Virus record (IMG/VR): IMGVR_UViG_3300032249_001461
Location: 1-64,000 of that record
DNA length: 64,000 bases
Source of the DNA: a virus
Reading direction: 5' to 3' (one strand)
The position numbers and the translations under genes are program-made. Below are positions 10,734-59,464 of the stretch, piece after piece; position 1 is the stretch's first letter; every line of letters starts with the position of its first letter. Below the pieces are notes generated by a model. That model was not told where the DNA came from. It saw only the letters and a list, made by a program, of their open reading frames with translations, and searched no databases.

Positions 10734-11558
10734 ATGACCCGCTTCAAGGAATGGCTCATCAACGAGGCTGCCATAGGCCCACAGAACATTCGGTACGACA
10801 CCCAAGGGAGGCCAAACTTCAGGGTCTCAATAAGGAACCAAGGACAGATAATAGGCCTTGAAATCTTGCAGGGTTCCAACTACAAATACGCGGGCGACAT
10901 GGTGAGCGATGACTTCGGAGACGAAAATCTTCTCAAGGGATACAAGATATACAACTGGCATGCGGATATGCCGCAAGGAGCCGGCTACGGTCCCATGTTC
11001 TACGACATAGCCCTGGAGATCGCCACGAAGAACGGCGGATATTTGGCTCCTTCTACGCTCCTGAACAGGTTCAAGAACATTCATGACGCCAAGGAAAGGA
11101 AGGGCCATGGCGGAGGCGACGCCACGGACGCGGCCGAGAGCGTTTACAAGTTTATTTACGAAAGGCGAGGGGATGTGGAGAAAGTCCAGCCCAACATAGT
11201 ACTTGCCAACGAACCCGACCAGGCAGAAAAGCCGTGGATGTACGAGTTTTACCAAAAGAAGCCAACCGTGCTTCCGCAACTAATTGAAATGAACAGGAAA
11301 GGACGGCCAGTCCTGGTCAGTGGAGTGGGAATACAAGCCGAGCCGATAATTGACATGAACTTCAATGCCATGCGGCAGAAAGAACAGCCACAGCAAAATC
11401 AACCCACCCAAGCCCCTAAGCAACCCCAATTTCATGGCTTCCAAATGGGCGACACGAAAACTTGGCAACAGCGACAGAAGCATCTTAATTCCATGGGAAT
11501 AGACACTGCAGAATGGAGCCGTGCGGAGATCATGAGGGGTGTGAAAAACAAGGACTAG
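10734..11558 (+). CDS. Leader-bearing protein with a GNAT-like segment
   Basis: MTRFKEWLINE leader; QGAGYGPMFYDIALE resembles GNAT motif A; TACATA 4 nt upstream. Confidence 0.65.
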   Translation: MTRFKEWLINEAAIGPQNIRYDTQGRPNFRVSIRNQGQIIGLEILQGSNYKYAGDMVSDDFGDENLLKGYKIYNWHADMPQGAGYGPMFYDIALEIATKNGGYLAPSTLLNRFKNIHDAKERKGHGGGDATDAAESVYKFIYERRGDVEKVQPNIVLANEPDQAEKPWMYEFYQKKPTVLPQLIEMNRKGRPVLVSGVGIQAEPIIDMNFNAMRQKEQPQQNQPTQAPKQPQFHGFQMGDTKTWQQRQKHLNSMGIDTAEWSRAEIMRGVKNKD

Positions 11559-12670
11559 AACCCCACCCGCCTCCTCTCTTCCTTTTCATGAAAGTTGTCG
11601 TCTTCGTTGTATATCTCCGCGAGGGTCATCGGCTCTTCAGTCCGCCTCTTTGACTTCATGGACTTGAATACCTTGTTGCACTCCTCGGGCGAAAGAGCTT
11701 TGAAATGATGCTCCATAAGAAGCCTACCCTTCCTCACGAGGGCGGAGTCTATGTTCTCCCTGTCGGTGTTGAAGGTCGCGATCACAAGGATGTTCAGGCA
11801 GTCGCCGAGGATTCCGTCCGTTATGTTCAGGATGTTGCTGATGGCCTCGTTGTCCTGTGTGTTTCTGCTGCGCAGAACCTTCTCCGCATCCTCAAGAAGT
11901 AGTATGCAGTTCCTGTAGCCCATTATGAAGCTCATGAAGTCGGGATTCGTGAGCTGCTCCGCGGATCCGGACGAAAGGTATATTACCTTCCTAGTGGTCT
12001 TGGTCGTCAGGTATTTTATAAACGTACTCTTTCCCGTTCCGGGATCCCCCGAAAAGAGCATCAGCCCGTTCTTGTTCTTGGATATGGACTTGACCACCTT
12101 GTCGAACTTCGCCTTTGCCTCAGACCCGTAGTTGAGCTCAAGGTCTATGTTCTTCTGTGGAAGCTTTATGTCGAAGCGCTGGAGGTTCAGCATCCCGTCG
12201 GAGCTGCAGAGGACATAGACGTTGCTGTGCTTCTTCTGACTGGAGTCCTTGTCTATCGTCTCCCTGACGAGGCCGAGCGTCTTGGCATTCTGGTATAAAA
12301 TTTTGCAGGCGTAGTTCGCGGAGTCCTTTTCTGACGGGCCAGAATCCTCGTCCTCCCCGGAAAAATACTCTATCCTGTTGACGAGGCTCTCCCGGAGGTA
12401 GAAGAAGAGCAGTGCGTCATCGTGCCGGTAGCACACCTCGTTCTGAAAGACCGACTCCTTGCCTTCCACGATCTTCTCCGACTCGGAGAAAAATATGCGT
12501 TCCGCCCCAATTTTCTCAAGCTTTCCGAAAGTCGTCTTCTTGATAGGAAGGCGGTATTCGTAAATGTCAGGATGCGATCCGTAGAGTTCTATGTAATGGT
12601 GGAAGGGATTGAAATAGGTGCCGTAGTCGTTATGACTCTTCCTGGCATATGGGTTGAATTTGATTTCCAT
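11555..12670 (-). CDS. AAA+ ATPase
   Basis: Walker A GDPGTGKS, Walker B LLLEDAE, ATFN and ALVRKGR. Confidence 0.9.
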   Translation of the reverse strand: MEIKFNPYARKSHNDYGTYFNPFHHYIELYGSHPDIYEYRLPIKKTTFGKLEKIGAERIFFSESEKIVEGKESVFQNEVCYRHDDALLFFYLRESLVNRIEYFSGEDEDSGPSEKDSANYACKILYQNAKTLGLVRETIDKDSSQKKHSNVYVLCSSDGMLNLQRFDIKLPQKNIDLELNYGSEAKAKFDKVVKSISKNKNGLMLFSGDPGTGKSTFIKYLTTKTTRKVIYLSSGSAEQLTNPDFMSFIMGYRNCILLLEDAEKVLRSRNTQDNEAISNILNITDGILGDCLNILVIATFNTDRENIDSALVRKGRLLMEHHFKALSPEECNKVFKSMKSKRRTEEPMTLAEIYNEDDNFHEKEERRRVGF

Positions 12671-12743
12671 GGACGGAGATTATATGCGCTCGCGGACGAA
12701 AATCAATAGGTCCTTGAGAATTTGAGTTATCAAGCATAGTTCC

Positions 12744-13145: not shown

Positions 13146-13151
13146 TATATA
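13146..13151 (+). promoter_or_regulatory. Candidate late-promoter box TATATA upstream of the head operon
   Basis: Matches the TANATA box repeated across the window. Confidence 0.5.
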
Positions 13152-13222: not shown

Positions 13223-15016
13223 ATGAAAAGAAAACTCATCGGCTACGATGCATTCAACAAAATAAAGACCGAATCGCTTTCCAACGTGCAGGGGGAGCTG
13301 GAAGGCGCGGCCGACCTGCTCGCGAGAACCCTTGAGCTCGAGGGTCTGTCCCTCGTCTCCTACGGCTCGCAGGAAGCCCTTTTCGAGTCCGCGGACGGCA
13401 CTCACGTCCACGCCAACTACGAGGTGAAGAACGGCTTCGTGCAGTTCGACCAGGTAGAGCAGCTCGTCATCAACGAGGAGTCCGAGGTCGCCGCATCGAA
13501 GGAAGTCATATCCAGAATGATCGACTCGCTCATAGAGTCCGACGAGGGCAAGGCCGACGAGCTCTTCGCGGAGTGGATGGGCCTCCCCAGGACCAAGAGG
13601 GTCTTCACGGAGATGAAGAAGCTCCGCGTCGTCCCGATCCGCAAGAAGGTCGGCGGAAAGACCAAGATCGTCGGATACCGCAAGGCCCGCTGGAACGTGA
13701 CCCCCAAGAGCCACGAGAGCGCGAGCAAGACGGCCAGAAGGGTCAGGGGCAAGAAGGTCGCCCAGAGGAAGCTCCCCGAGGGCCTCAGGAAGTTCCTCGC
13801 CCAGAGGCGCGAGAGGGTTAAGAAGACCATCGGCGAGTGGCACGTCATCGCGGAGAACGTCCTCGGATACATGGATATCGCCGAAAACGGCCCCGCAGTA
13901 GACCAGTGCCAGGTCCTCAGGCATGAGGGCGAGGTAGTGGGCGTGAGAGTCCCGACCGCCAAGCTCCGCAACGAGGCCAGGGTGCTCAAGTTCAACTGGA
14001 AGACCCTCAACACCGACGTCGTCGTGAAGAGGAATGCCAGCAAGAAGATCAGCGAGAACCAGGATTTCACCAGGGAGATCGCCGAACTCAAGAGATTCAA
14101 CGCCCTCTCGGACAGCCAGGCCGTGGATGAGTCCATAGAGAAGATATCAACAAAGCACCCCGAGGTGATCTATCTGACCGAGGCGGAGCTCTCCAGACAG
14201 ATCAAGAGGTGCCTCGAGAGCGTCAGCGCAACCAACTACGACGACGAGACATGCCGCTTCCTCGCGGAAGGAATACTCCGCACAGCCCACGAGAACCTCG
14301 TCGACAGAGTGTCGAAGGTCGTGAAGCTCGCCGGAGCCAGGATCAACGAACAGGCCGCCGACAAGTACGCGGAGTTCAAGAACGTCGCGGAAGCCTTCTA
14401 TAAGAAGCTCGACGAAAGCACCATGTTGGAGATGCAGGCCTTCGTGGACGTCTACGAGGCCCTCAGGCAGATCCACGAGATGTCCGTCGAAGAAAAGAAC
14501 GAGATCGTCGCAGACGAGACCGCGGAACACCTCGACGCACTGCTCCCCATCGTCAGGAACGAGTCGGAGCCTTCTCTTGACGTCCTCGCAGACGCGGCCG
14601 AATGGCTCTACGACGTGGTCGAAGCCACCGCACCCGAGGAGTGGAAGACAGATGAGCCGGTCGTAAGCGACAACGGCGAACATCCCGTCCTGCTCAAGAA
14701 GGGCAAGCAGACCCAGTACGACGCGGAAAAGCCGGGCCAGACGCCCGCTGCCCACCACACAAGCGACGGCAAGGAATATGCCGGAGCCGCAGCCAAGGAG
14801 CTGGAGGGAGAGGGATGGGGCAACATCGGAGGCGATGGGGTCTACCCCGAAATGGACAACCCCTACGTACTCAAGGGAGGGGAATACAAGATCGCCGGAG
14901 AAAAGGACGTGGACTCGGACACCGACCAGCTCGCCCATTGGGGCGACAACGACACGTGGCCGAACCTGCAGAACCCCTACTCTAAGGCCAGCGTCACACC
15001 CACGGAAGCCAAATAA
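13223..15016 (+). CDS. Probable prohead core protein
   Basis: 597 aa, immediately upstream of gp21; acidic with a central Lys/Arg-rich block reminiscent of gp68; AGGAG SD. Confidence 0.6.
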   Translation: MKRKLIGYDAFNKIKTESLSNVQGELEGAADLLARTLELEGLSLVSYGSQEALFESADGTHVHANYEVKNGFVQFDQVEQLVINEESEVAASKEVISRMIDSLIESDEGKADELFAEWMGLPRTKRVFTEMKKLRVVPIRKKVGGKTKIVGYRKARWNVTPKSHESASKTARRVRGKKVAQRKLPEGLRKFLAQRRERVKKTIGEWHVIAENVLGYMDIAENGPAVDQCQVLRHEGEVVGVRVPTAKLRNEARVLKFNWKTLNTDVVVKRNASKKISENQDFTREIAELKRFNALSDSQAVDESIEKISTKHPEVIYLTEAELSRQIKRCLESVSATNYDDETCRFLAEGILRTAHENLVDRVSKVVKLAGARINEQAADKYAEFKNVAEAFYKKLDESTMLEMQAFVDVYEALRQIHEMSVEEKNEIVADETAEHLDALLPIVRNESEPSLDVLADAAEWLYDVVEATAPEEWKTDEPVVSDNGEHPVLLKKGKQTQYDAEKPGQTPAAHHTSDGKEYAGAAAKELEGEGWGNIGGDGVYPEMDNPYVLKGGEYKIAGEKDVDSDTDQLAHWGDNDTWPNLQNPYSKASVTPTEAK

Positions 15017-15030: not shown

Positions 15031-15753
15031 GTGCATCTGCTATTGGAACACGAGATGATTCCAGGGACGGTATACGAAAACAGGCTGATCCTCGGAGGGG
15101 GCAACTGCGCCATCCTCAATGAAATGAACCTCCAAGAGACCGCGGGCTCCACAGGATCCCTCGTCAAGTTCAGGGGCAAGTTCCAGGAGGCGGACGCCAT
15201 CAACAAGAACAAGAGAACCTATCCCTACGAAATCCTGAACGAGAACGTCAAGGCTCTCAAGGAATCCATAGACAACGGCGGACTCATCGGCGAACTAGAC
15301 CACCCCACCGACAGCATCGTCCACTTCGCCAACGCCAGCCACAAGATCACCAAACTCTGGTGGGAGGGCAAGACCCTCATGGGCGAAGGCCTCATACTCA
15401 ACACACCCCACGGCAAGATCCTCAAGGCGCTCATCAACGACGGCGTCCGAGTGGGAATCAGCAGCCGCGGAGTCGGCAACGGAAAGGTGAACGAACAGGG
15501 AATACTCGTCATCGGAGAGAGCTACAAACTCATAACCTTCGACGCAGTCGCAGACCCAAGCACCTCGCAGGCCTACCAGGAGAAGGTTGTCTCCAAGGAA
15601 AGCGTGAGCCACGTTTCTCTTCCACAAACAGCACACGCAACTGCAAAAAATGAAAACAGCGGCATACATACTCTGACCAAAGAGCTTGTTATCGCCGCTC
15701 TCGGTGGAATTGTTCAGAAACAAGCCAAAGAAATTAAAGAGAGGTTGAACTAA
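15031..15753 (+). CDS. gp21: T4 gp21-like prohead protease
   Basis: NKNKRTYP, GELDHP, GISSRGVG and FDAVADPS motifs. Confidence 0.95.
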   Translation: MHLLLEHEMIPGTVYENRLILGGGNCAILNEMNLQETAGSTGSLVKFRGKFQEADAINKNKRTYPYEILNENVKALKESIDNGGLIGELDHPTDSIVHFANASHKITKLWWEGKTLMGEGLILNTPHGKILKALINDGVRVGISSRGVGNGKVNEQGILVIGESYKLITFDAVADPSTSQAYQEKVVSKESVSHVSLPQTAHATAKNENSGIHTLTKELVIAALGGIVQKQAKEIKERLN

Positions 15754-16667
15754 TGGAAAAAATCGTCGAAGCTTTGACAAAGTTGCTGCCCGAGGATTCC
15801 GTCGCGGACGTCACGGAAGCGGTCAAGACCGAACTGGAAAATGCAAAGCAGGCCTACGAGCAGGAATTCAGCTCGAAGCTTGAAGAGGCCTACTCCGAAC
15901 TCTCCGAGGAACTCAAGACCGCCGAAGAGACGGCCATACAGGGCTACAAGGAAGCCTATGCCATCATCCAGGATCTCCGCGCCAGACTCGGAACCCAGCA
16001 GAAGGAGTTCGAGCTCGGAATGGAAGAGGGCTACGAAGAGGCCTACCAGATGCTCGTCGCAGAAAAGAAGAAGAACGAGAATCTAGAAGTCGAAATGTAC
16101 GACCAGTTCAACACCAAGCTACACGAGATGAAGGAGTACATGGTCGACAAGGTCGACGCCTTCCTCCAGTACAAGAGCAACGAACTATACGAGTCGGCCC
16201 GCCACGAAGTTGAGAACGACCCCCGCACTGCGGAACACAAGGTCGCACTCGACCGAGTCCTGGAGTGCGTCGCCGACTACGTCGGTGACGAGAGCTTCAC
16301 GTCAGCCACCAACGCCAAGGTTGAAGAGGCCACACGCAAGGCAGGCGAACTCAAGAGCCAGATCAAGATCCTGGAAGCCAGGAACATCAGACTCAGCGCA
16401 GAAAACACCAAGCTTACCGAGGCAGTCCGCGAGACCCAGAAGGTCATAACGGAGTCGGCCAAGGAAGAAAAGAAAGAAAGAGTTGAAAAGGCAAAGAATG
16501 TGCAGGGGAGAGGACGTGCTGTCAACGACTCTGAGCTTGTTGCCGAATGGAGTGACAATAAGTCCGAAGAAAAGAAGTCAAATGTTGACAAAACTTTGGT
16601 CGAAAACCTTGATCCGGACCTGCTTCGTCAAATGCAGGTTCTTGCCGGAACCAAGAACAACGACTGA
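15753..16667 (+). CDS. gp22: gp22-like scaffold protein
   Basis: Acidic coiled-coil between protease and major capsid; contains DKVDAFL. Confidence 0.8.
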   Translation: MEKIVEALTKLLPEDSVADVTEAVKTELENAKQAYEQEFSSKLEEAYSELSEELKTAEETAIQGYKEAYAIIQDLRARLGTQQKEFELGMEEGYEEAYQMLVAEKKKNENLEVEMYDQFNTKLHEMKEYMVDKVDAFLQYKSNELYESARHEVENDPRTAEHKVALDRVLECVADYVGDESFTSATNAKVEEATRKAGELKSQIKILEARNIRLSAENTKLTEAVRETQKVITESAKEEKKERVEKAKNVQGRGRAVNDSELVAEWSDNKSEEKKSNVDKTLVENLDPDLLRQMQVLAGTKNND

Positions 16668-16708: not shown

Positions 16709-18136
16709 ATGCAAGCTAATGCCAAGTTTCTTAATGAGGCGAGGGAGCTGGAATCTCGTTGGGCGCAAACAGGTTTGCTAGAGAACATAAGCGACAAGTA
16801 CACACGTTCTTGCACTGCCGTTCTCCTCGAAAACCAGCGTCTCATCAACGAGAGCTCAACCGACTCGGGCGACGTAGCCCAGTTCAAGAGAATCTCGATT
16901 CCGCTCGTTCGCAGAATATATCCGCAGCTTATCGCCAACAAGGTGGTCTCGGTCCAGCCGCTACTCGGCCCGACCGGCCTAGTGTACTACCTCCGTTTTA
17001 GATACGGCAGCAACAAGGGCAGCGTCCGTGGAGCCAGCAAGGCTGGATTCCCCGGCGACGACGCCAACTCGCTCCAGCAGCTCGCCTCGGGCGATGCCAA
17101 CCTGAGCGTCTACTACTCGCACCAGTTCGTCGAGAACGAGTCGAGCTCAGTTGACGCGGGCGGCACCAGCTCGACGTTCGTGCTCGAGCACACCCCGGTT
17201 CTTGCTGGCACCGTGACCGGCACCGTGTACGACGGAAGCGTCGCAGTCCAGACCTTCGTGGTCTCGGAGAGCGGCACCTTCACGTTCCACGATGTCGGCA
17301 CCCCCGCCAACAAGGCGACCGTCGGTTCGTTGAACCTCACCACGGGCGAACTCGCCCTGACGTGGAACAACGACCCGGGTCCGAACCGTGTTGTTGTCTC
17401 GTACGAGTACAACATGGAGTGCAACCAGGACCTCCCCGAAATCAACCTCGTCGTTGAGTCGGAAGAGATCGCTGCCAAGACCAGAAAGCTCAAGGCCGTG
17501 TGGAGCTACGAGGCCCAGCAGGACCTCCGCAGCCAGCACAACCTCGACGCCGAGGCTGAACTCACCGCCGTCCTGGCACAGGAGATCAACCTTGAAATCG
17601 ACCGTGAGGTTCTCTCGGACCTGCGTAACAACGCCGGCACCGTCGCCTCGTGGGACTTCAATACCGCCCTTGGTGATACCATCAAGGAAAAGTATGAGTC
17701 GCTCTATGTCAAGGTAGTTGAGGTCAGCAACGTGGTGCATCGCAAGACGCTCCGCGGTGGCTGCAACTGGCTCGTGACCAGCCCCGAAGTCGCCTCGATC
17801 TTTGAGACGGCCACCGCTGGTTTCGCTCCGGCTCCCTCGGAAGGTTTCACATCGTCGCTCGGCATCCAGTATGTCGGCACCGTGAACAACCGTTGGAGGC
17901 TCTACAAGGATCCGCTGTTCCCGACGGGACAGATCCTCATGGGCTATAAGGGCGACAGCTATATGGACAGTGGTTACTTCTACTGCCCGTACGTGCCACT
18001 CACCCAGACCCCAGTTGTCCTCGACCCAGAGTCCTTTTGCCCACGCAAGGGAATACTCACGAGGTATGGGAAGAAACTCCTTCGTGAGGGTGCCAAGTTT
18101 TACGCACGCCTCAGCGTAGCCAATTTTGTGATTTAG
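16709..18136 (+). CDS. gp23: gp23-like major capsid protein
   Basis: LLENQ, LVRR, VQPLLGPTGL, AKTRKLKA, EINLEIDRE, YCPYVPL and TRYG motifs. Confidence 0.97.
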   Translation: MQANAKFLNEARELESRWAQTGLLENISDKYTRSCTAVLLENQRLINESSTDSGDVAQFKRISIPLVRRIYPQLIANKVVSVQPLLGPTGLVYYLRFRYGSNKGSVRGASKAGFPGDDANSLQQLASGDANLSVYYSHQFVENESSSVDAGGTSSTFVLEHTPVLAGTVTGTVYDGSVAVQTFVVSESGTFTFHDVGTPANKATVGSLNLTTGELALTWNNDPGPNRVVVSYEYNMECNQDLPEINLVVESEEIAAKTRKLKAVWSYEAQQDLRSQHNLDAEAELTAVLAQEINLEIDREVLSDLRNNAGTVASWDFNTALGDTIKEKYESLYVKVVEVSNVVHRKTLRGGCNWLVTSPEVASIFETATAGFAPAPSEGFTSSLGIQYVGTVNNRWRLYKDPLFPTGQILMGYKGDSYMDSGYFYCPYVPLTQTPVVLDPESFCPRKGILTRYGKKLLREGAKFYARLSVANFVI

Positions 18137-18330: not shown

Positions 18331-18669
18331 ATGTACCAAGTCAAATGCCCCGAGTGTGGCCAAGAAAGAGTCGTAAGGGCCAAAAAGAAATGGATGGACG
18401 ACGGTCTTGTCAAAATCTGTATGAGCTGCTGTCAGAAGGGAAAGAAGAAAAGTCCCGAGACGCTTGCCAAGCTATCCGAAATAGCGAAGCGCCAACAAAC
18501 CCCCGAACTGATTGAGAAGAAGAGGCAGTTCATGAAAGACCACCCAGAGTGCTGGCAAGGCAAACTGGTGCCGGGTTTGGGTGGCGGGTGGAACAAGGGC
18601 ATGCATACGGACGAGGAGACTCTGAAGAAGATTTCTGAAGGTGTCAGGAAGGCAAAGGAGAAGAAATAA
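18331..18669 (+). CDS. Zn-ribbon / NUMOD3-like DNA-binding protein
   Basis: CPEC...CMSC; KSPETLAKLSE and HTDEETLKKISE repeats. Confidence 0.65.
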   Translation: MYQVKCPECGQERVVRAKKKWMDDGLVKICMSCCQKGKKKSPETLAKLSEIAKRQQTPELIEKKRQFMKDHPECWQGKLVPGLGGGWNKGMHTDEETLKKISEGVRKAKEKK

Positions 18670-19784
18670 TGAACATAGAAGAACTTGAAAAAAAATACGA
18701 GGAATGCGGATTCAGGGATAAGATTTGCGTTCCGTGCGACATTGAGGGGTGTGGACGGCATTCTTGGACAAATAAGGATTCGGCAATACGCAACATCAGA
18801 AAGAACGGATTTTTCAGGTGTAGAATCTGCTCCTATTCGGACGAAAGCAGAAAGAAGATAGCAGAAGCCAGTTCCTACAAACGATCACCAGAAACCTGCC
18901 AGAAAATGGCAGAGGCCAAGAAAGCCTTCTACAGAACTGACGAGGGAAAGAACCTCAAGAAGAAGCTTTCCATCATGGCTGCTGAGAACCACTCCCAGAA
19001 CAAGTACGAAAAATCAAAGAGGAGAGGCGTTTTCCAGTCCAAGAAGACCGGCAGGAACCTCTCCTATGACTCCTCCTACGAACTGCGTCTGTGCTGGATG
19101 CTAGACTCAGACGAGGAAGTAGCAGATTTTGAAACCCAGATTGGCTTCCGCATAGACGGCCACGGGAGGTGTCTAGATTGCTTGGTGACCTACAAGGACG
19201 GAAGAAAGAAGGCCATAGAGGTAAAGCCCAAGCAGAGGCTTGACGAATTTGCCCACCAGATTGACGACAGTCGCCGTCACGCCACACAAAAAGGCTGGGG
19301 GTTCCAGGTGATGACGGAGGAAGACCTCGGTATGAACTGCGACCAGATTCGCACGTGGGCAGACGAATACCGCACCAAGGTAACGGGGATTGACTACAAC
19401 GCCTACAGAGACGAGACCATAAGGAGGAAGTCAAAAAAGTTCTACGACACCCACATCGCCACCGACAAGGTCTCTGTCTACTGCGAGTATTGCAAGGAGG
19501 ATCACAATCCCCTCCGGCTCACATACGACAAGAACATAGCCCGCAACGGCCGGTACATCTGCGAGCGCGAGGGGGGTCACATAGCGGGCAGCAGGCCAAA
19601 GAAGAAGAAGGTGAACCCCCATGCCGCTTCGGGATCCAAGGAATGCTTGGGGTGCAAGCAGGTGTTGCCCTTCTCGGAATACGGCCTGGACAAGTCCAGG
19701 AGTGACGGTTACGCCAGCAAGTGCAAGGAGTGCAGGAGGGTGGCTGCGAATGAGAAATATGCGGGGAAGAGGTCTGATCTCTAG
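18669..19784 (+). CDS. TnsA-like PD-(D/E)XK homing endonuclease with NUMOD3 and Zn fingers
   Basis: YDSSYELR and DCLVTYKDG..AIEVKP; several CxxC pairs. Confidence 0.75.
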   Translation: MNIEELEKKYEECGFRDKICVPCDIEGCGRHSWTNKDSAIRNIRKNGFFRCRICSYSDESRKKIAEASSYKRSPETCQKMAEAKKAFYRTDEGKNLKKKLSIMAAENHSQNKYEKSKRRGVFQSKKTGRNLSYDSSYELRLCWMLDSDEEVADFETQIGFRIDGHGRCLDCLVTYKDGRKKAIEVKPKQRLDEFAHQIDDSRRHATQKGWGFQVMTEEDLGMNCDQIRTWADEYRTKVTGIDYNAYRDETIRRKSKKFYDTHIATDKVSVYCEYCKEDHNPLRLTYDKNIARNGRYICEREGGHIAGSRPKKKKVNPHAASGSKECLGCKQVLPFSEYGLDKSRSDGYASKCKECRRVAANEKYAGKRSDL

Positions 19785-19785: not shown

Positions 19786-21183
19786 CTACTTCAGAATCAA
19801 CTCCAAATAATTCTTAACCGCCTCTACGGCCTCGTTCGGTGCGACATCAAACCATTCTCCGTTCAAATGACGCTTGGCGAAATGTCTGTGCATTAGTCGC
19901 TCAAAGGAAGTCATGTTTTCACACTTAAATTTAGCCACCATTTTGAGTTTTCTAGGGTTTCCAGTTTGAAGCGCGGGCATTCTTTTTGAAGGCGAATTGG
20001 ATAATCCTATTTTTGTTGGGCCGCTTTCTTGATTTTCACAAATAACATATACAAAACCTTTGTTTTTACACTCGGCTCCGCCAATTTTTGTTTTTCTTAT
20101 TGATCTCGGATTGATTGAAAACCCCATAAACTTTGAATAGTTAGAAAGCAATTTATTTACTCCTCCGCTTGTCAGAGGTCCTCGTATGCCTATAAAAACT
20201 TTGTCACTTAAAGTCGGGGGTCGGACATCAAGCCAAGCGGCAAGTGCCCGAGAAGATTCAGAATTGAGTGCAACTATGTTGGCACCTTTTTTGTTGCAAA
20301 AGACAATCTTGATCAGGCCGCTGGAGACATCCAAGTCTGACAATTTCAATTCTACTAATTCGCTTGAGAGGCATCCTGTGTCAATAAGCACATGGAAAAT
20401 CGCACTGCTCCTCGTGTCTCCACGAGCCTTTGCCTCAAGAAGCAATTTGTTTATTTCTTCTTTGTCAAGTAATTTTGGCTTGATCTTTGTCCTTCCCCTC
20501 ATCTCCTTCACGAACTTTGCAGGATTAGAATTCAATTCACCTTTCTCCACAAGCCAATTAAAAAACTTACGAACTAAAACCACATTTCTGTTGACTGTAG
20601 AGTATGACAACCCAGATTGTCCGATTGAAAAAACTTGAAAATCTACAAAATCTTGTGTGACAATGTCTTTTGAGGAAAATGATTTATATTTGTGTTTATT
20701 TATCCAAATCATAAATCTGCGTAGGTCTTTGTGAATTGCCCTAGTTGTACTATCTTTGATGTTTTGTTCTTCGATAAACTGGGCGAATAGTATTTTTTCT
20801 TGATCGCCACAATTTACTCCTTTAAATGTTTTTGTGACCATTTCAGATTTGCTGATTTTCTTTCTTTCTGCGGGCAAACGAGGTTGTAAATTGAGGGGTG
20901 GAAGTTTGGGTTTGCCGGATATTTTGACATTCTTTTTTTTGTGTCTGCCTGCCCTGAAGAATATGATCTGACCGTTGATTCCGACATTGTTGTGGTGAAC
21001 ATATAGAATAATTTTCTGTTGTTCTCGGGTGAAGTAAGGCCTTCCTTTCTCGTCTCTATTTGGCAAAGGAAAAATGGTTCCAACAAGCTCGTTGAATCTC
21101 GTTCGGCTCATGCCGATCATCTTGGCCGCCCCGGATATTGATACGAAATCTCGCAATTCGTCCATGTTCATGAATTCTTTCAA
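19786..21183 (-). CDS. HTH + degenerate tyrosine-recombinase + GIY-YIG (T5orf172-like) fusion
   Basis: STVNR..VRKFFNWL...NP (integrase SAM-like domain), TGCLSSEL, PRSIRK, then GFVYVI..KIGLS...LQTGNP...GEWF. Confidence 0.75.
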   Translation of the reverse strand: MKEFMNMDELRDFVSISGAAKMIGMSRTRFNELVGTIFPLPNRDEKGRPYFTREQQKIILYVHHNNVGINGQIIFFRAGRHKKKNVKISGKPKLPPLNLQPRLPAERKKISKSEMVTKTFKGVNCGDQEKILFAQFIEEQNIKDSTTRAIHKDLRRFMIWINKHKYKSFSSKDIVTQDFVDFQVFSIGQSGLSYSTVNRNVVLVRKFFNWLVEKGELNSNPAKFVKEMRGRTKIKPKLLDKEEINKLLLEAKARGDTRSSAIFHVLIDTGCLSSELVELKLSDLDVSSGLIKIVFCNKKGANIVALNSESSRALAAWLDVRPPTLSDKVFIGIRGPLTSGGVNKLLSNYSKFMGFSINPRSIRKTKIGGAECKNKGFVYVICENQESGPTKIGLSNSPSKRMPALQTGNPRKLKMVAKFKCENMTSFERLMHRHFAKRHLNGEWFDVAPNEAVEAVKNYLELILK

Positions 21184-21273: not shown

Positions 21274-21729
21274 ATGAAGACTTTCAATGAATGGCTGAAG
21301 GGCAGAGTTATATCGGAAAACGATCCCGACTACCGGGAGCCGAGCTTCTCCAAGATATTGGGCGAGGACGGCGACGAGCCGTTCACGGTAGAGGTGGATG
21401 TTGCCGAGGGTCACTGGACGGTTTCTGGTCCGCTGTGGGCGGTTGGATATGTGATGAACGGGTCGGAGCCCAAGGCGGGCGGCCCGGTGCAGGAAGAAAA
21501 GGGCGTTGTAATGTTCAAGACGCCCGGCAGGAGGCTTGAAAATCTTCCTCCCGCCCTCAAGATGGCGGCTACAACCTGGATAGACAAGGAGGTTGAGTGG
21601 TCCATACAGAACTACGAGGAAGAAGACCCGAGGGACTACGACGACCGAGACGACTACAATCCCGATCCTGATGGTCATGGTTATTGGGACAACTACTGGA
21701 ATCACGGACCCGGACGCGACCCGGATTGA
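21274..21729 (+). CDS. Leader-bearing acidic hypothetical protein
   Basis: MKTFNEWL...ISE; TATATA 5 nt upstream. Confidence 0.75.
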   Translation: MKTFNEWLKGRVISENDPDYREPSFSKILGEDGDEPFTVEVDVAEGHWTVSGPLWAVGYVMNGSEPKAGGPVQEEKGVVMFKTPGRRLENLPPALKMAATTWIDKEVEWSIQNYEEEDPRDYDDRDDYNPDPDGHGYWDNYWNHGPGRDPD

Positions 21730-22427: not shown

Positions 22428-22694
22428 ATGAAAAGTTTTAATGAGTGGAGAAAGTTACATGAGTCGCTTGACCCAATATCGTTTCTTCAAGATAACGAGC
22501 ATGAGTGGGTTACAGTAGGAATAGATTCAGAAGGTCACAAAATACACATATTCCCCAATTCCTTGCCAGGGGAACTTCCTCGCAGGCTTGATGGAGAAAA
22601 TTGGTCAGAAAAACACTTTGATGGTGGCGTTCAAGAAATGACCGGAAAAGAACTTTTGACCCTAAAAGACAGAGTTGAATTTGTGATGCACTAA
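22428..22694 (+). CDS. Leader-bearing hypothetical protein inside the IS boundaries
   Basis: MKSFNEWRKLHE; AAGGTG SD; TATATA upstream. Confidence 0.7.
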   Translation: MKSFNEWRKLHESLDPISFLQDNEHEWVTVGIDSEGHKIHIFPNSLPGELPRRLDGENWSEKHFDGGVQEMTGKELLTLKDRVEFVMH

Positions 22695-24726: not shown

Positions 24727-25065
24727 ATGAAAACTTTCTTTGAGATGCTCAGATTGCTAGAGGACGAGGGGCTTGCGGACAAGGTTCCCCAGGACGCCGC
24801 GGAACAGCCGGAGGGGCCGGTTGAACAGCCGCAGGAGCCCGCTTCGGGGAGAGAAGAGCGCAAGCACTACATGTTCTTCTCTAATCTCAAGGCCATCAAG
24901 GGCATGGCGGAGGAGATGCTGGCTATGGATGCCGCGAAGATAGACGAGATGCTCGCGGACGGTCATGACTGGGCGGCCGACCACGTCGCGACGAGCAAGG
25001 ACGATGTCGAGGAGGTCTACAACTGGCTTTCGGGCGAGATGAGTGATTCTGGGAATCCCTCTTGA
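24727..25065 (+). CDS. Leader-bearing hypothetical protein
   Basis: MKTFFEMLRLLE; TAAATA box and GGAGG SD. Confidence 0.75.
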   Translation: MKTFFEMLRLLEDEGLADKVPQDAAEQPEGPVEQPQEPASGREERKHYMFFSNLKAIKGMAEEMLAMDAAKIDEMLADGHDWAADHVATSKDDVEEVYNWLSGEMSDSGNPS

Positions 25066-45715: not shown

Positions 45716-45982
45716 ATGAAATCATTTTTGGACTGGTTGAAAGAGGAAAGGCTGGAGCTCCCGACCTTCACGGACGCGGGCGAAGCGGAAGGAAATGTTG
45801 ATGCTCCCGCCGGGAAGAAGACTGTGGAGGAGAAGACGAAGAGAACCGGACTTAGCGCCAACTATCCTCCGGCCTATGTTTCGGGCCAGTACCCGCACAA
45901 GTATTTCAATCCCTCCAAGGCTACGGCTGACCTCGACATAAAGAACATCGAGGACAAGAACGTCGTAACCCCCGAGGAGTAG
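45716..45982 (+). CDS. Leader-bearing small protein
   Basis: MKSFLDWLKEE; TATATA box and GGAG SD. Confidence 0.75.
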   Translation: MKSFLDWLKEERLELPTFTDAGEAEGNVDAPAGKKTVEEKTKRTGLSANYPPAYVSGQYPHKYFNPSKATADLDIKNIEDKNVVTPEE

Positions 45983-47004: not shown

Positions 47005-47820
47005 ATGCTTTCGTACAAGGACTACAAGAAACTCAACGAATCGCTCTACGGAGCATTCAATCTCGGTCTGAAGGGCGCCAACGTGGTTGGGGGAATCGTC
47101 AGCGCATCATCGGTCAACGGCACTGAAGCGGCTCTCGAGGCCAGGGCCGAGGAGGCCATCGAGGAAGCCAAGAAGATGAAGAAGAAGATGGAGTCGGACG
47201 AGGAGCATGACGAGGAAGAGGTCGAAGAGAAGGATTCCGACGAAGGCGAGGACTCGGACGAAGATCATGACGAAGAAGAGCATGACGACGAAGAGAGCGA
47301 AGAAGAGGAAGATTCCGAAGAGGACTCCGACGAAGAGGACGAAGAGGAGTCCGATCCCAAATTCATGAAGAAGAAGGCCAAGAAGGAGTGGGCCGAGGTC
47401 CTTGCCGATCTAGAGGCAGTCTTGGAGGACGTATCAAACGAGGCCAACCTTGCAGAAATAAAGAAAGGCCTGGAGATCATCAGGGAGGGCGCGAAGAAGG
47501 GCCACAAGAAGGGCTGCGACTGCAATTTCTGCAAGAGCGTCAAGGCCAAAAAGGAAGGCAAAGACGAGGGAGATGACGAAGGCCTGACGGCCGGACAGAA
47601 GAAGCTTCCCAAGGCCCTACAGGACGCCATCCTCGCGAAGAAGGACAAGAAGGGCGACAAAGAAGACAAGAAGTGCGGGAAGTACATGAAGGAGGACGAT
47701 GCCGCGTGGTGGAACAGCGTCAACAGCATGCTCGGAACCGAGGACCAGAAGGGCTGGGACGGTTGGACTGAGGTGGGCGAAATAGAGACTGCCATAAGGG
47801 ACGAGCAGAACCCCGTATGA
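47005..47820 (+). CDS. Highly acidic/basic head-core-like protein with leader
   Basis: MLSYKDYKKLNE; long D/E tract; LTAGQKKLPKALQDAIL. Confidence 0.7.
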   Translation: MLSYKDYKKLNESLYGAFNLGLKGANVVGGIVSASSVNGTEAALEARAEEAIEEAKKMKKKMESDEEHDEEEVEEKDSDEGEDSDEDHDEEEHDDEESEEEEDSEEDSDEEDEEESDPKFMKKKAKKEWAEVLADLEAVLEDVSNEANLAEIKKGLEIIREGAKKGHKKGCDCNFCKSVKAKKEGKDEGDDEGLTAGQKKLPKALQDAILAKKDKKGDKEDKKCGKYMKEDDAAWWNSVNSMLGTEDQKGWDGWTEVGEIETAIRDEQNPV

Positions 47821-48013: not shown

Positions 48014-48499
48014 ATGTTCAAATTCAAAGATAAGGCCAATCCCGTAGGCGTAATACACAAGGTCTCGGAGATTGAGGAAAAGCTCGTCAAATACGCAAGA
48101 ATGTGGGACGAGCAGAGGGCGAGGGGCTTCTGGCTGTCAAAGTCCGACAGGTCCAGGCTCACCCATTTCATGCTGGTCGCCCTTGATGACTTCATGATTT
48201 CGGTTGCGATTCTGTCCATACCCGGCCCCGACAAGAAGGCAACCGTGCTGGATGCGATGGACAGGCTCTATGAGTACACCGTACGCGAGGCTCTGCCCAT
48301 ATGGCTGAGGCCGTTCGCCGAGCCCGTAAAGCAGTATGTGGTATATGTCCTTGTGTCGTTTGCGATCGACTGGGCAGTGCAGAAGTACAATACCGGAAGC
48401 TGGGGCAGGACGGTGGAGACCAGCGCCCTTGCAAGAATCCTGAAGAAGGCGGGCTGCGAGTCATTTCCGTGCGTCAGGTGCTCAAGGAGGGAAGCATGA
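48014..48499 (+). CDS. Hypothetical protein
   Basis: TATATA box, AGGAGG SD, coupled to the protease gene. Confidence 0.7.
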   Translation: MFKFKDKANPVGVIHKVSEIEEKLVKYARMWDEQRARGFWLSKSDRSRLTHFMLVALDDFMISVAILSIPGPDKKATVLDAMDRLYEYTVREALPIWLRPFAEPVKQYVVYVLVSFAIDWAVQKYNTGSWGRTVETSALARILKKAGCESFPCVRCSRREA

Positions 48500-49437
48500 G
48501 AAGCAAAAACAATCAGTGTAGCCTCTTTCCCTACGAAAGAGAGGAAGTTTTTTCCATACAGGACGCGATGCAGAAGGCGGGATGGAACATCACTGCATTT
48601 GACCTCCCCGGCGCCTGGTCTAAATCAAAGGGAGAGGGCGTGAAAATAGCGGTCATAGACACGGGCGTGGACCTAGATCATCCCGACCTTGTCAGGAATC
48701 TTCTTCCCGGAATGAACTTCATAGACGCTTCTTCGCAGCCTTGGGACGACAACCACCACGGAACCCATGTTGCGGGCATAATAGTTGCGGAGAACAATGA
48801 AATAGGAATGGTCGGAGTCGCCCCGTCATCAAAGGTGATCCCCATAAAGGTCCTGGACAGGAGCGGAAACGGAAGTCTGACGAACGTGGCCAAGGGCATC
48901 AGATGGGCCGTGGACGAGGGCAAGGCGGATCTGATATGCATGTCGCTGGGATCTCCGAACCCAGTCCAGGAGGTGAGGAAGGCCGTCCAGTATGCTGAAT
49001 CCAAGGGCGTGGTCTGCTTCGTTGCCGCCGGAAATTCGGGAATGACAAAGAACATATTCTATCCGGCCGAATATCCGGAAACCATCGCGATTGGTTCAAT
49101 AGATGAAAACCTGAGCAGGTCTAGGTTCAGCAACACTGGCCACAACCTGGACTTCATGGCTCCGGGAAACAGAATATTCTCGACTGTCCCAGACAACTGG
49201 TATGCCGTGCTGAGCGGGACGAGCATGGCGGCTCCTTTTGCCACGGGGGTGGCGGCGCTGGTACTTTCCTATTCTAGGAACAACGGACCGGGAATGAAAC
49301 TGAACACGGCGGAGGACTATAGAAATGCTTTCAGGGACCATACGATCCCTATCACGGACGCCCTCCTTAAGGATCAGAAGTTCTATCAGGGATTCGGAAT
49401 ACTCGAGCCGAGGAAGCTATTCGAGGCGTTGGGCTGA
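48496..49437 (+). CDS. Subtilisin-family (S8) serine protease
   Basis: VIDTG, HGTHVAG, AAGN and GTSMAAP. Confidence 0.95.
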   Translation: MRSKNNQCSLFPYEREEVFSIQDAMQKAGWNITAFDLPGAWSKSKGEGVKIAVIDTGVDLDHPDLVRNLLPGMNFIDASSQPWDDNHHGTHVAGIIVAENNEIGMVGVAPSSKVIPIKVLDRSGNGSLTNVAKGIRWAVDEGKADLICMSLGSPNPVQEVRKAVQYAESKGVVCFVAAGNSGMTKNIFYPAEYPETIAIGSIDENLSRSRFSNTGHNLDFMAPGNRIFSTVPDNWYAVLSGTSMAAPFATGVAALVLSYSRNNGPGMKLNTAEDYRNAFRDHTIPITDALLKDQKFYQGFGILEPRKLFEALG

Positions 49438-52384: not shown

Positions 52385-53656
52385 GTCAATTACCCACCCC
52401 CTAAAGGGAGTGGGCTTGTAAATCACCGGAGCCTTCTCCACAGTGTCTACTATAAGCCAATTGACACATGGCTCGTTCTTCAACAGCTTGCCGTTGAAGA
52501 AGCGACCGGAGTGCTACATTTTTAGCACCGACACGGTCTGCGTTGTCCGAGAACTTGCAGGCAACGCACCGAAAAACCAGTCCATTTCGGTTGGACTTAT
52601 CAACGCAACCACAACAAGGACAACCCCTGCTCGTATTTTTTGCAGGAACATTGTCAACGGTTATCCCAACAGAATTAGCCTTGTATGTGACAAAAAACTC
52701 AAGCATAAAGTAGGGCCACCTGTTATTCCTTGATCTCTGCTTGTGGTGTTGTTTTTTGTTTTCCTTGGTAAATTTCTGTTTGAAGCCGGTCAACTTTTCC
52801 AATGTTATGGTTCTTGCATTGTTCAAACTTGCAAAATTAACCAATTGCTTACTTGCAATGTGTAATATATTCTGTGTTACGGCTTTTTCTCTTCCGCTTA
52901 ACCGCTTTAGTAAACGGTGTGCTGAACGAGTGCCAACACTGGCTACTTTTGCTCTTGTTTGTCTGATGCAGAGTCTTTTGTGATTTAGTTCACCTCCCTT
53001 GATGTAAAGTGTCTTGTTTGAATTAGGGTCTATTGCAACGAGTATGTTTTTCTGTCCACGGTCAACCCCAATTATTCCGCCTTCAACTCTTGGTTCAACT
53101 TGGTCAATTTCAACTGTCAAGCACAACCACCATTGACCTTTACTGAATTTCAACTTTGAGTCACTCCATTTGCCTTTAGGAAGCGGTCGTGACTTGTAGG
53201 AAACCAGTTCGCCCCAGATGCTCATTCCCTTTTTTCTGATGTTGAAATCCCGTTTCCAGCAAAGTGGCAAACTTGTCTTGTTGTATGTCGCAAAGCTCCA
53301 ATTCTTGTTGCTTTTCATGCTTCTGTATGTTCCAACCACATGGCGGAACAAGGAGCAAGTCAATTGGCTGGGAAGATTGAATTTTTCTCTCACCATGCCG
53401 TAGAACTCTTTGCTCAATTGACCCGGAGTGTTGACTTTCTTGCGAGAATAGATTATCTTAGACAGCCAGTTTGCGGCATCCTTGTAGGATTCGGCGTATT
53501 GGCTGAACTTGGAATGCTCGCTTGTTATTTTGAGTTTGTATGTTCGTAGGGCTTTCGTCACGAACTTATATAGTAAGATTGTGACGAAAATTATTTAGGA
53601 GGTAACGGCAATTCCTCCCAGCCCCTAAAGGGACTGGGTTTCCTTGCCGAATTCAG
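52385..53656 (-). mobile_element. IS1341-type (tnpB-only) element
   Basis: Left-end hairpin 53606-53649 after TTCAT; right end ...tttagggggtgggtaatTGAC; no target duplication. Confidence 0.88.
52401..53561 (-). CDS. tnpB: TnpB RNA-guided nuclease
   Basis: GVDRG, LEKL, TSRGCPCCG and NADRVGAKN. Confidence 0.93.
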   Translation of the reverse strand: MTKALRTYKLKITSEHSKFSQYAESYKDAANWLSKIIYSRKKVNTPGQLSKEFYGMVREKFNLPSQLTCSLFRHVVGTYRSMKSNKNWSFATYNKTSLPLCWKRDFNIRKKGMSIWGELVSYKSRPLPKGKWSDSKLKFSKGQWWLCLTVEIDQVEPRVEGGIIGVDRGQKNILVAIDPNSNKTLYIKGGELNHKRLCIRQTRAKVASVGTRSAHRLLKRLSGREKAVTQNILHIASKQLVNFASLNNARTITLEKLTGFKQKFTKENKKQHHKQRSRNNRWPYFMLEFFVTYKANSVGITVDNVPAKNTSRGCPCCGCVDKSNRNGLVFRCVACKFSDNADRVGAKNVALRSLLQRQAVEERAMCQLAYSRHCGEGSGDLQAHSL

Positions 53657-53917: not shown

Positions 53918-54385
53918 TTACCTCTTAGGGCCTCGCTTGAGCCTGACTGGGTTCAGCTTCTCCGCATGTCGGTCCTTGACGCCCTTCAGCCCGTGCATCA
54001 TGTTGACGAGTTCCTTCGCCATCTCCGCGGGCGTGTCGTTCCTGCACTTTTCGGACCTCTGTATGGATACCGTCTTCCTGTCCTTGTTGTAGAAGCCGTT
54101 TGACATTATGAAACAGCCTCCCTCCTCCTTCGGGCTGTAGCTGATCATGCCCACCCACTCCCCGTCGTCCCAGTTCCTGGAACTCACCATTATCCTTGCG
54201 GGCTCCTCGTCGAATATCTGCCGCACGTGGTATCCGCGCTTCTTGAGGCCGGCGCTGACGTAGCCGAGGGCTATCTTCGCAAAGCCCTCCAGAACCTCCT
54301 TCGTCCTGGTTCTGTAGTTGACTTCCACGCTGTACCGCGTGTTGCCCTCGTCCATCCTCTTTTCCATCCACTCCTGAAATCTCAT
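53918..54385 (-). CDS. Leader-bearing hypothetical protein
   Basis: MRFQEWME...MDE; TATATA 5 nt upstream. Confidence 0.75.
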   Translation of the reverse strand: MRFQEWMEKRMDEGNTRYSVEVNYRTRTKEVLEGFAKIALGYVSAGLKKRGYHVRQIFDEEPARIMVSSRNWDDGEWVGMISYSPKEEGGCFIMSNGFYNKDRKTVSIQRSEKCRNDTPAEMAKELVNMMHGLKGVKDRHAEKLNPVRLKRGPKR

Positions 54386-57341: not shown

Positions 57342-57409
57342 TTTTATGATGGCGCTTGCGGATTGTTCACGGTATATAGTTTGATTTTTCCTAAAAACTC
57401 AACTCGGAT

Positions 57410-59464
57410 TCAGGACAGATTTGAGGCCTTTATCACTTCGCCCTCGCCCGATCCCTTGTCCACGAAGGTGAACGATATGTCCTGCCAACCGCGGAGGACA
57501 GGTTCGCCATGCTCGTCCTTGTTTTTGATTGATGCGGACACCGATCTTCTGACTGACTCCCTGGCCTTGCTGAAGTGCTTGGAGTGCAGCCAAACCTCCA
57601 GGTCGTTAGAGTCTTCAGGCCACTTGAATATGACGAGGCCATCCTCGTAGGCCTTCTCTTCTGCGATCTCCTTCTCGTATTTCCAGACGTCGGACTCGTC
57701 GGCCTCCGGCTCGTACTTCCAGCTCTCCTCCTCCTCTTCCTTCTTGAGCCGATCCTTCTTCCAGTCCACGAAGTCGTCAAAATAGTCGTCCTTTATTTCT
57801 TTCTTGGCGTCCTCTTCGGAAGTGCCATCCCATTCGCCCTCGGAGAACCTGTCCTCGATGTACTCATCCCACTCGTAGTCTATGTCGGACTCCACCTCCT
57901 CCCTGTCCTGTCCGTAGGTTTCCGACTTCCTTTCCTCCGCGTTCGCATAGGCCTCCTCGCTCGCCTTCTCGTGGGCCGCGCCGAACACCTCCTCCTTGTC
58001 TACGATGTCATTGTCAAGGGCAAGCCGGGACACCTCCACGTCGTCACCGTCGAGATATTTCAAAGGAACGTCCTTCCATGAAGTGTCGGTTCCTACCTGC
58101 ATGTACTTGAAGGAGCCCCTGCCGATGGTATCCCTGTCCATCGCCTCCTTCTCCTCTCGCTTTTTTTCGTCTTCTTCCTCCCTGGTCTTTATCTTCTTAT
58201 GGGCGTCCTCTATCTGATCCTTGCCTCGTATGTTTATGTGTTCTGCGAGTTTCTTGAGGTACTCTATGTCTCCGGGCCTGATGGTCTCCCCGGACTCCAA
58301 CCAGGAGTTTATGGCCTCCTCGTACTCCCTCTTGAACCTCTCGTAATTCCCGCTTGCGTGCTTGGAAAGAAGGGGCGATATGGAGAACATCCTTATCGCG
58401 TTGCTCATCCAAAGCCGTGGGTTCTCCACCATGTAGGAGTACTCTTCCTCATGTATTTCCTTGTATAGTCTGATGGCGTCGTCTGCGTCCTGCGTCTTTG
58501 ACGCCTCCTCCATGACTTCATACATGTGCTGGCTGTCGCCCTTCAGAGCCTCGATGAAGAATGTGAGGAACGGACTTTCGTTGTGCTGCCAGTTGATGTA
58601 CTTTACCAGTTCGTCAAGCGGAACCTTCGTGTTTTCGGGGGTTGTGTCCTTGTCCCACGAATGCCGGAAGTACTTGTAGACCTGCTCTCTTGCCTTGGGG
58701 TGGTTTGCGAGCATCTTGTCCGCGAGGAACTTGATGTAGGAGGAAGACTTTTTTATCTTGGTCGCATCGTCGTCGTGTTCTTGTTTGCCCCTTTTGGACC
58801 ACACGGTTTCGGCTCCCCCGTAGTTCCAGCCCTTTACTATGCTGTAATGTTCTATGATGTCATTGTCTATCAGCGGTTGGGCCGCCTTCTTCATCGCGCC
58901 GACGATCTTTTCGATCTGCATCGCGGCGCTTCCGGGGTTAACCCGCATGAAATACGCCCACGATCCGCTCATCCTGCTGAAGGAGACGCCGGCGGTGGCC
59001 TTCTTCGCGTTCGCAGATGTCTTGCCCATTTCGGGTGTTGATGTGGAGGAGAACTCCTTTTCGCCCTTCATCCCCTTCATGGCGGGATGGTCGTCGTCCA
59101 CGCCGGCTGCCGACATGGCTCCCATCCATGCGCTGTCGCCTTCCTTGTAGGGCAGGGGCTTGAGTCCCGATGCGGCCAGCGATGCGGCGAGCGACTTGAT
59201 GAACGCCCTGTCCGCCCCGTTTCCGGCCTCTATGGGCGTCTTCTTTATGATCCCGACCACCGTCGCGGCGCCATCGGACAGTTTTACGTATCCAGGACGC
59301 TCCTCCGAAAACGGCCACACCTCGAAGGACGAATAGTAATCGCCGGCTCCATAGGAGAACTCCACGACGTTGTTGTTCTCCCTTGACTTTCCGAGAGACG
59401 CCTCCCCGGAGCCCGTATTAACCACTATGTTTTCATGAAGAAGGAGCCATTCCTTGAATCGCAT
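57410..59464 (-). CDS. Large leader-bearing acidic protein
   Basis: MRFKEWLLLHE; TAGATA 4 nt upstream. Confidence 0.8.
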   Translation of the reverse strand: MRFKEWLLLHENIVVNTGSGEASLGKSRENNNVVEFSYGAGDYYSSFEVWPFSEERPGYVKLSDGAATVVGIIKKTPIEAGNGADRAFIKSLAASLAASGLKPLPYKEGDSAWMGAMSAAGVDDDHPAMKGMKGEKEFSSTSTPEMGKTSANAKKATAGVSFSRMSGSWAYFMRVNPGSAAMQIEKIVGAMKKAAQPLIDNDIIEHYSIVKGWNYGGAETVWSKRGKQEHDDDATKIKKSSSYIKFLADKMLANHPKAREQVYKYFRHSWDKDTTPENTKVPLDELVKYINWQHNESPFLTFFIEALKGDSQHMYEVMEEASKTQDADDAIRLYKEIHEEEYSYMVENPRLWMSNAIRMFSISPLLSKHASGNYERFKREYEEAINSWLESGETIRPGDIEYLKKLAEHINIRGKDQIEDAHKKIKTREEEDEKKREEKEAMDRDTIGRGSFKYMQVGTDTSWKDVPLKYLDGDDVEVSRLALDNDIVDKEEVFGAAHEKASEEAYANAEERKSETYGQDREEVESDIDYEWDEYIEDRFSEGEWDGTSEEDAKKEIKDDYFDDFVDWKKDRLKKEEEEESWKYEPEADESDVWKYEKEIAEEKAYEDGLVIFKWPEDSNDLEVWLHSKHFSKARESVRRSVSASIKNKDEHGEPVLRGWQDISFTFVDKGSGEGEVIKASNLS

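Follow-up and report, generated by a model that had tools for sequence, protein, structure and literature searches.

The DNA analysed here makes up the first 64 kb of a virus contig of 99.9 kb from IMG/VR (record IMGVR_UViG_3300032249_001461, G000 below), and this whole stretch of 64,000 nucleotides is what we call the window. It encodes a head module of the phage T4 type and, between 10734 and 59464, a set of otherwise unrelated proteins that start with the same short peptide, an N-terminal tag of 8–12 residues with the consensus M1-K2-T/S3-F4-x5-E6-W7-L8, behind which [LI]-x-E often stands at residues 10–12. CheckV estimates the contig as 20% complete, so that the phage would measure roughly 500 kb. 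The closest public record is LR756511.1, an uncultured 595-kb phage with 78% identity in the capsid protein; identity to the capsid proteins of cultured phages is at most 33%. A related capsid protein is encoded in at least 401 IMG/VR stretches, the best 80 of which are 82–97% identical. Two relatives were used for comparison, the complete 532,729-bp genome G001 and the 251-kb contig G003 with 36% GC. The head module consists of the following genes:

8033–10531, plus strand: portal protein of the T4 gp20 type (Pfam Portal_T4, 1.8e-76; PHROG portal)
13223–15016, plus strand: 597-residue protein, first gene of the head operon, with 14 [LI]xE sites against 8 expected
15031–15753, plus strand: prohead protease of the T4 gp21 type (Pfam Peptidase_S77, 2.5e-27; PHROG head maturation protease, 8e-50)
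15753–16667, plus strand: putative scaffold in the gp22 position, assigned from position and composition; 304 residues, acidic, 10 [LI]xE sites
16709–18136, plus strand: major capsid protein of the T4 gp23 type (Pfam Gp23, 1e-84)

An earlier note on this DNA, made from the letters alone, had claimed a gp21 and a capsid protein with a LINE site for the window, and both are present, with L-I-N-E at capsid residues 45–48. The capsid protein has four [LI]xE motifs in its N-terminal 48 residues (E10, E25, E41 and LINE48/SS; here and below a slash separates the motif from what follows), all before the conserved domain, and the protease, the scaffold-like protein and the 597-residue protein contain about twice the expected number. 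This pattern fits a T4-like cleavage specificity and does not prove it. The putative scaffold gave no family match in Pfam or PHROG.

The tagged genes of the window are these (PSSM, score in a position-specific scoring matrix of the tag):

10734–11558, plus strand: 274 residues, MTRFKEWLINE/AA; body of probable GNAT-like fold; in the head module, directly after the portal gene
21274–21729, plus strand: 151 residues, MKTFNEWLKGRVISE; PSSM 27.1; TATATAGG box 5 nucleotides before the ATG
22428–22694, plus strand: 88 residues, MKSFNEWRKLHE; PSSM 24.7
24281–24679, minus strand: 132 residues, MDFRTWLENNE; weak ASCH-like match (Pfam E=0.006, below the cut-off)
24727–25065, plus strand: 112 residues, MKTFFEMLRLLE, with Met replacing Trp; PSSM 10.4
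29517–30566, plus strand: 349 residues, MDFKEWLLSE/VDWE; GP88 family (PF17338)
37924–39491, plus strand: operon of five small tagged genes of 90–112 residues, starting at 37924, 38193, 38525, 38860 and 39156
43611–45617, minus strand: 668 residues, MLCLKEWLELD; PSSM 16.0
45716–45982, plus strand: 88 residues, MKSFLDWLKEERLE; PSSM 20.0; homologue in G001
47005–47820, plus strand: 271 residues, MLSYKDYKKLNE/S; very acidic body
53918–54385, minus strand: 155 residues, MRFQEWMEKRMDE; TATATA box 5 nucleotides before the ATG
57410–59464, minus strand: 684 residues, MRFKEWLLLHE/N; TAGATAGG box just before the ATG
35556–35936, plus strand: doubtful member, 126 residues, MLSLQEYKQIKG; DUF5856/Dps-like

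All 17 start coordinates that the earlier note had listed translate as it wrote them. The tag is clear at 10734, 21274, 22428, 24727, 29517, 37924, 38193, 38525, 39156, 45617(-), 45716, 54385(-) and 59464(-), acceptable as a variant at 24679(-) and 47005 with the assistance of relatives, and weak or doubtful at 38860 (MIPSFLSWME) and 35556 (MLSLQEY), so that 14 or 15 members of the proposed set stand clearly and 2 or 3 are weak. Among relatives, a candidate, putatively homologous counterpart of 24679(-) on contig L149 starts MDFRDWLESNEPTKGINI, and a G001 protein similar in length to 47005 starts MLSYKQWKMLNE/S, with tblastn at E<1e-4 giving no link between the two. The G001 orthologue of 54385(-), 58% identical, starts MKSFQDWKDE, 691-residue proteins of relatives corresponding to 59464(-) start M[RL]F[RK]EWLLLQE, and the G003 orthologue of the doubtful 35556 starts MISLNDY. 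Three further tags lie past the window on the same contig, at 66119, 68188 and 96264(-).

The motif is concentrated at protein N-termini well above background. With a strict pattern (^M.{0,4}[FILY].[EDQ]W[LMRK]; ATG starts, open reading frames of at least 50 residues), 12 starts matched in the 99.9-kb contig, against about 0.1–0.2 predicted from the rate at which the tag core occurs inside proteins (0.00025 per internal residue), and residue-shuffled proteins gave a mean of 0.07 matches compared with 6 in a crude gene set. In a PSSM census, 15 of 3775 candidate starts in G000 matched, with 1.9 false matches expected; the corresponding figures are 35 matches with 11.9 false for G001 and 25 matches with 2.5 false for G003. 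The tag is thus enriched about 75-fold or more above chance, and tag-bearing proteins amount to about 14 per 100 kb here and to roughly 20–25 in each of the two sequenced relatives. Matches of the form 'MFAEWM...' in relatives proved to be internal methionines of the 597-residue head protein and were discarded.

The register of the tag was analysed on 82 distinct tags, collected here and in related phages. In 66 of them residue 7 is Trp, Met stands at position -6 from it in 90%, and F4, E6 and L8 occur in 84%, 84% and 75%, respectively, with Phe or Tyr at position 4 in 91%; variants have Phe, Tyr or Met in place of the Trp. In contrast to this fixed Trp register, the codons of K2, F4, E6 and L8 vary and follow genome-wide usage in genomes of 51%, 53% and 36% GC, and all six leucine codons are found, so that the conserved unit is a peptide counted from Met1. 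Two export signals were considered for it and rejected. A Sec or Tat signal peptide does not fit the tag logo, in which the hydrophobic residues F4, W7 and L8 are broken by E6 and followed by positions rich in Glu, Lys and Asn, leaving no hydrophobic region of about 10 residues. A double-glycine leader for a C39 peptidase does not fit either, as Gly makes up only 4–15% at the listed positions after the Trp and GG follows [LI]xE in few tags.

The bodies behind the tag are unrelated, as claimed in the earlier note: all-against-all BLASTP connected only 38193 and 38525, which are paralogues within the operon whose genes each overlap the next by ATGA, and the Pfam families are diverse. Of the body labels proposed there, GP88 (29517) and DUF5856/Dps-like (35556) pass Pfam, GNAT-like holds at the level of the fold only (Z at most 6.6), ASCH stays below the cut-off and a sigma-like protein was not found. 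Pfam and PHROG searches gave no match for the proteins at 21274 and 45617(-), a protein atlas search gave no usable match for the 684-residue protein, and PHROGs returned no virion annotation for ten tagged proteins. In relatives the tagged cargo includes NUDIX, AAA_33 kinase, C39-like peptidase, PolyA_pol/CCA-type nucleotidyltransferase and DUF5662 proteins, with the NUDIX domain starting at residue 14, AAA_33 at residue 16 and C39 at residue 27. The domains thus begin right behind the tag, which is a short extension ahead of them. Homologues in G001 or G003 were found for only 4 of the 20 tagged proteins of the contig, so the cargo set turns over fast.

The tagged gene at 10734 is a resident of the head module. 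Nearly all of its 66 homologues start with M-x-x-F-[KR]-E-W-L-[ILV]-x-E-A-A, where F4 and E11 are invariant. In its AlphaFold2 model (mean pLDDT 83.9) the tag is a separate helix of residues 3–11 with a pLDDT of about 52, lying outside the fold; for residues 14–180 all of the top 50 VIA matches are GNAT acetyltransferases (Z 4.8–6.6), a moderate fold-level match that suggests a GNAT-like body. The GP88-like protein at 29517 was modelled similarly, its leader residues 1–8 having a pLDDT below 50 and its body high confidence, and a fold search with this model found no meaningful match in the PDB. The tag is therefore under selection as a peptide, fixed to Met1, carried by unrelated bodies and placed outside the folded domain.

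A peptide of this kind is known from phage T4, as the capsid-targeting sequence (CTS) of the internal proteins (IPs) IPI, IPII, IPIII and Alt, reportedly described by Mullaney and Black in 1996 and covered by the reviews PMC9026906 and PMC3012670. In the T4 record IPII and IPIII start MKTYQEFIAE/A and IPI starts MKTFKEF. For packaging, the 10 N-terminal residues of IPIII are enough, with residues 4 and 7 needed for targeting and residues 8 and 10 for processing; the protease gp21 cuts after L/I-x-E, and with Asp at position 10 the protein is still targeted but not processed (PMC9026906). The positions conserved in our tags (4, 7 and 8) are positions mapped in T4. Like the tag (MKTFNEWL here, MKTYQEFIAE or MKTFKEF in T4), the CTS is a peptide of 10–19 residues counted from Met1, has aromatic residues at positions 4 and 7 (Y4/F7 or F4/F7), precedes unrelated mature proteins, accompanies a gp20/gp21(S77)/gp23 head module and belongs to a cargo set that varies among related phages. 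The CTS also has an aliphatic residue at 8 and a Glu near 10 within L/I-x-E; of our tags, 75% have L8 and about half have the [LI]xE. Some head-adjacent genes of relatives start MKTFNEFIEQ, MKTFSQF and MKSYKEYLLAE/GA. The two systems differ in that position 7 is Trp here and Phe in T4; in that there are about 14 tagged genes per 100 kb here compared with five MK-x-[FY]-x-E starts in T4, three of which are IP genes; in that the cargo here reaches 684 residues and includes recognisable enzymes; and in that the canonical cleavage motif follows only about half of the tags. Other sampled phages of the T4 superfamily (XacN1, P-RSM1, Mel-JY01 and LR756508) have only one or two such starts. As for the cleavage motif, [LI]xE with its Glu at residues 9–16, mostly at 10, 11 or 12, is found in 44 of the 82 tags compared with 7.8% of control segments, and [LI]xE followed by Ala, Gly or Ser in 21 of the 82 compared with 1.7% of controls.

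The clearest view of how the leader evolves comes from the GP88-like family, for which 1184 homologues were found. Among orthologues of 60–80% identity the alignment begins at an invariant [LI]-x-E/[IV]DWE, with E10 invariant, and the leader before this point differs by lineage, being MEFKEWLxNE here and MLRKLLREALAF..[ILV]-x-E (IDE, INE, LDE), MQKLNRLYNVVLNE.., MGKDIRKIISEVLNE or MKNFIKKILRETL in other lineages, so that this one gene carries four or more leader types. Homologues of 38–55% identity are almost leaderless (MRLDE/IDW, MVFEADINE/IDW). The earlier note had proposed to check whether cellular homologues lack the leader; for one cargo, the GP88-like protein, homologues outside the lineage do not have this leader. 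The alternative leaders are also shared between genes: on contig L136 (9968–13910), from another lineage of huge phages, five adjacent genes, the first of which is the GP88-like orthologue, have the common leader x-I-R-K/R-I-I-R-E-V-L-x-E, and on L131 a leader of the K-K-L-L-R-E type is common to three genes. An S77 protease is encoded in three of the five contigs with alternative leaders, one of which is complete with a length of 362 kb; the two that gave no match are fragments. The tag co-occurs with the T4-type head module, and elsewhere orthologous cargo has a different leader in its place, an exchange that would fit an address tag co-evolving with a lineage-specific receptor.

A second shared feature is found upstream of the tagged genes. 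An ATAnATA-type box (TATATAGG, TAAATAGG, TAGATAGG) ends 4–8 nucleotides before the ATG in 23 of the 82 tagged starts, and a box lies within 30 nucleotides upstream in 27 of the 82, compared with 4.9% of control open reading frames. At a distance of 4–8 nucleotides from the start codon the transcript would be leaderless. The same box family is found 55–75 nucleotides upstream of the head operon, at 13146 here and in 30 of 53 relatives by a strict pattern, with near-variants seen by eye in others. This distribution is compatible with co-expression of tagged genes and head genes. In T4 the IP genes have no TATAAATA box within 90 nucleotides upstream, so expression timing discriminates poorly in this matter, and the T4 late sigma factor gp55 had no match in G000, G001, G003 or LR756511.1 in a single-sequence search, which is insensitive and says nothing on late transcription. 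The box ends 4–5 nucleotides before the ATG, as ATAnATA or TATATA, at many genes, for example at 21263, 24690(-), 29506, 36963(-), 54396(-) and 59475(-). Two TnpB or Cas12f-like OrfB_IS605 genes, 23157–24284 on the plus strand and 52401–53561 on the minus strand, have the same CTTACTATATAAG box 5 nucleotides before their starts, in the arrangement of the phage's own promoters of the leaderless type.

What is the role of the tag then? We put the chances at about even that the shared N-terminus is an expanded capsid-targeting propeptide of the T4 internal-protein type. This interpretation is based on the near-identity at the positions mapped in T4, the matching protease and head module, the enriched cleavage motif, the tagged family resident in the head module and the exchange of leaders. 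In such a mechanism the short amphipathic helix would dock each new protein on the scaffold or core of the assembling prohead, the shell would close around the docked protein, the gp21-type S77 protease would cut after the Glu of [LI]-x-E and free the mature protein in the head, and at infection this protein would exit together with the DNA. These steps, from docking through cleavage and packaging to injection, are inferred by analogy with T4, as we also infer that the tag was grafted onto many genes, in the words of the earlier note. A broader proposal, which we make tentatively and consider somewhat less probable, is that T4-related huge phages use leaders of the CTS type as an exchangeable, lineage-specific address code on acquired accessory genes, each leader being matched to the phage's own prohead core.

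Several observations weigh against a propeptide of this type. No [LI]xE is found beyond residue 8, within the 30 residues examined, in 36 of the 82 tags. The L-x-E that never varies in the GP88-like family is present in the leaderless homologues as well, so it predates the tag, cannot by itself be counted as a cleavage site and may be structural. In T4 itself one of the five MK-x-[FY]-x-E starts belongs to gp61.1 (L207, 18966–19130), a hypothetical protein of 54 residues from the early-gene region, which starts MKTFKEF like IPI and is not among the known head proteins, nor do we know of any report of its packaging. Likewise, we know of no NUDIX, CCA/poly(A) polymerase-like or kinase enzymes that are packaged in T4. 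Tagged genes cluster only weakly around the capsid gene, with P of 0.01–0.04 in two genomes and no clustering in the third. Since TnpB-like genes and others unconnected with the head have the box too, it does not prove late co-expression.

A rival reading is that the leader is a lineage-specific address or docking tag for a destination or partner other than the prohead, which could be a phage chaperone, an AAA+ unfoldase or a compartment for replication or assembly, or that it marks proteins as a degron for timed degradation. N-terminal amphipathic peptides are typical recognition signals of AAA+ proteins, and a gene for a classic AAA ATPase (11555–12670, minus strand) separates the head operon from the tagged gene 10734, which it adjoins within the head module. 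The 44% of tags that lack a canonical [LI]xE and the cytoplasm-type enzymes among the cargo would also be accommodated, and a lineage-wise swap of leaders is expected of any co-evolving pair of tag and receptor. However, only relatives with a capsid protein of about 90% identity or higher have the ATPase at this position; G001 and G003 lack it and yet use the tag, so that we rejected it as an obligatory partner. Moreover, the tag matches the T4 CTS at the very residues that T4 needs, [LI]xE is enriched directly behind it, and one tagged family has its permanent place among the head genes. We therefore consider a destination outside the prohead unlikely, at the level of a minority possibility.

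The box upstream of the tag raises the question of whether the shared start could have arisen at the level of DNA or RNA. If genes were mostly acquired behind a portable promoter, start codon and first codons, the common N-terminus would be largely a by-product, with a role in the head only for a few proteins such as 10734. The frequency of the ATAnATA box within 30 nucleotides of tagged starts (27 of the 82, 23 of them ending 4–8 nucleotides before the ATG, against 4.9% of controls) and the fast turnover of the cargo, with 4 of 20 having homologues in G001 or G003, are what this would produce, and in T-even phages the internal-protein loci are variable and only the CTS is conserved (PMC3012670). 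On the other hand, synonymous positions show no conservation and the DNA shares nothing beyond the short box, the tag is kept inside operons and behind Shine-Dalgarno sequences (37924–39491, 24727, 38525) as well as across genomes of 36–53% GC, and the same box stands also ahead of untagged genes, all of which makes such a cassette quite improbable in our opinion. Least probable of all, to the point that we give it very little weight, is a requirement of the mRNA or of translation initiation, for example of leaderless transcripts. It would agree with the many tagged genes whose box is close enough to the ATG for a leaderless transcript and with Lys as second codon (AAA or AAG), which is generally known to be common in well-expressed genes, but the codons of K2, F4, E6 and L8 follow genome usage with all six leucine codons occurring, the invariant Trp at residue 7 has no rationale in the mRNA, and there are both untagged genes of the leaderless type (TnpB-like, 36461(-)) and tagged genes with Shine-Dalgarno sequences.

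Returning to the capsid-targeting propeptide, a mechanism of this kind is known from T4, and the novelty here lies in its scale, in the enzymes among the cargo and in the swapping by lineage. Among giant phages, phiKZ, 201phi2-1 and SPN3US have long N-terminal propeptides on ejection and inner-body proteins (PMC5694885). The likeness to our case is that many head-internal proteins are processed after Glu by a gp21-related protease, that the packaged set is large and that targeting into the prohead is the presumed role of the propeptides. The differences are that most propeptides there exceed 100 residues, that they share no single short motif, that the cleavage logo is S/A/G-x-E or A-x-E, and that the head modules are only remotely T4-like. 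Leaders of still other huge phages (MNWYK..., MKYLKxFE..., MNRYDIALGKKP..., all unchecked leads) have motifs different from the tag described here. In the library searched, no paper was found that links CTS-like leaders with huge phages.

If the address code holds, the injected proteome of such a phage could be read directly from its sequence and would run to dozens of proteins, among them GNAT-like, NUDIX, CCA/poly(A)-polymerase-like, kinase and C39-peptidase enzymes. Should the tag work as in T4, the proteins delivered ahead of gene expression, which would be the first-strike factors for counter-defence and takeover, could be listed for a whole uncultured clade, and the tag would be a natural portable signal for loading foreign proteins into very large capsids. 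Since different leaders are found on the same cargo, lineages could be compared for co-variation of the leader with the prohead core.

Some further features of the head module and its surroundings can be added. No gp24-like vertex paralogue carrying the tag was found among the sequences examined; a second capsid-like match is part of a 911-residue protein whose N-terminus resembles a tail sheath, a likeness that family searches did not confirm. In G001 (L084–L110) there are scattered fragments 55–80% identical to pieces of the capsid protein, for example at 58168, 351363, 453534, 475757, 517823 and 524427, which may be remnants of genes, reused domains or an artefact of assembly. The portal gene contains an intein (Intein_splicing, 6.6e-10, residues 153–330 of 832). 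Directly behind the capsid gene lie two likely mobile-element genes, 18669–19784 and 19786–21183 on the minus strand, a pair made up of a gene resembling TnsA-like or EndoVII-type endonucleases and a tyrosine integrase fused to a T5orf172/MUG113 domain. Untagged genes interspersed among the tagged ones include two C5 cytosine DNA methylases, a class-III aminotransferase and a subtilase (S8), at 25135–26238, 28495–29469 and 39495–40838 on the minus strand and 48301–49437 on the plus strand.

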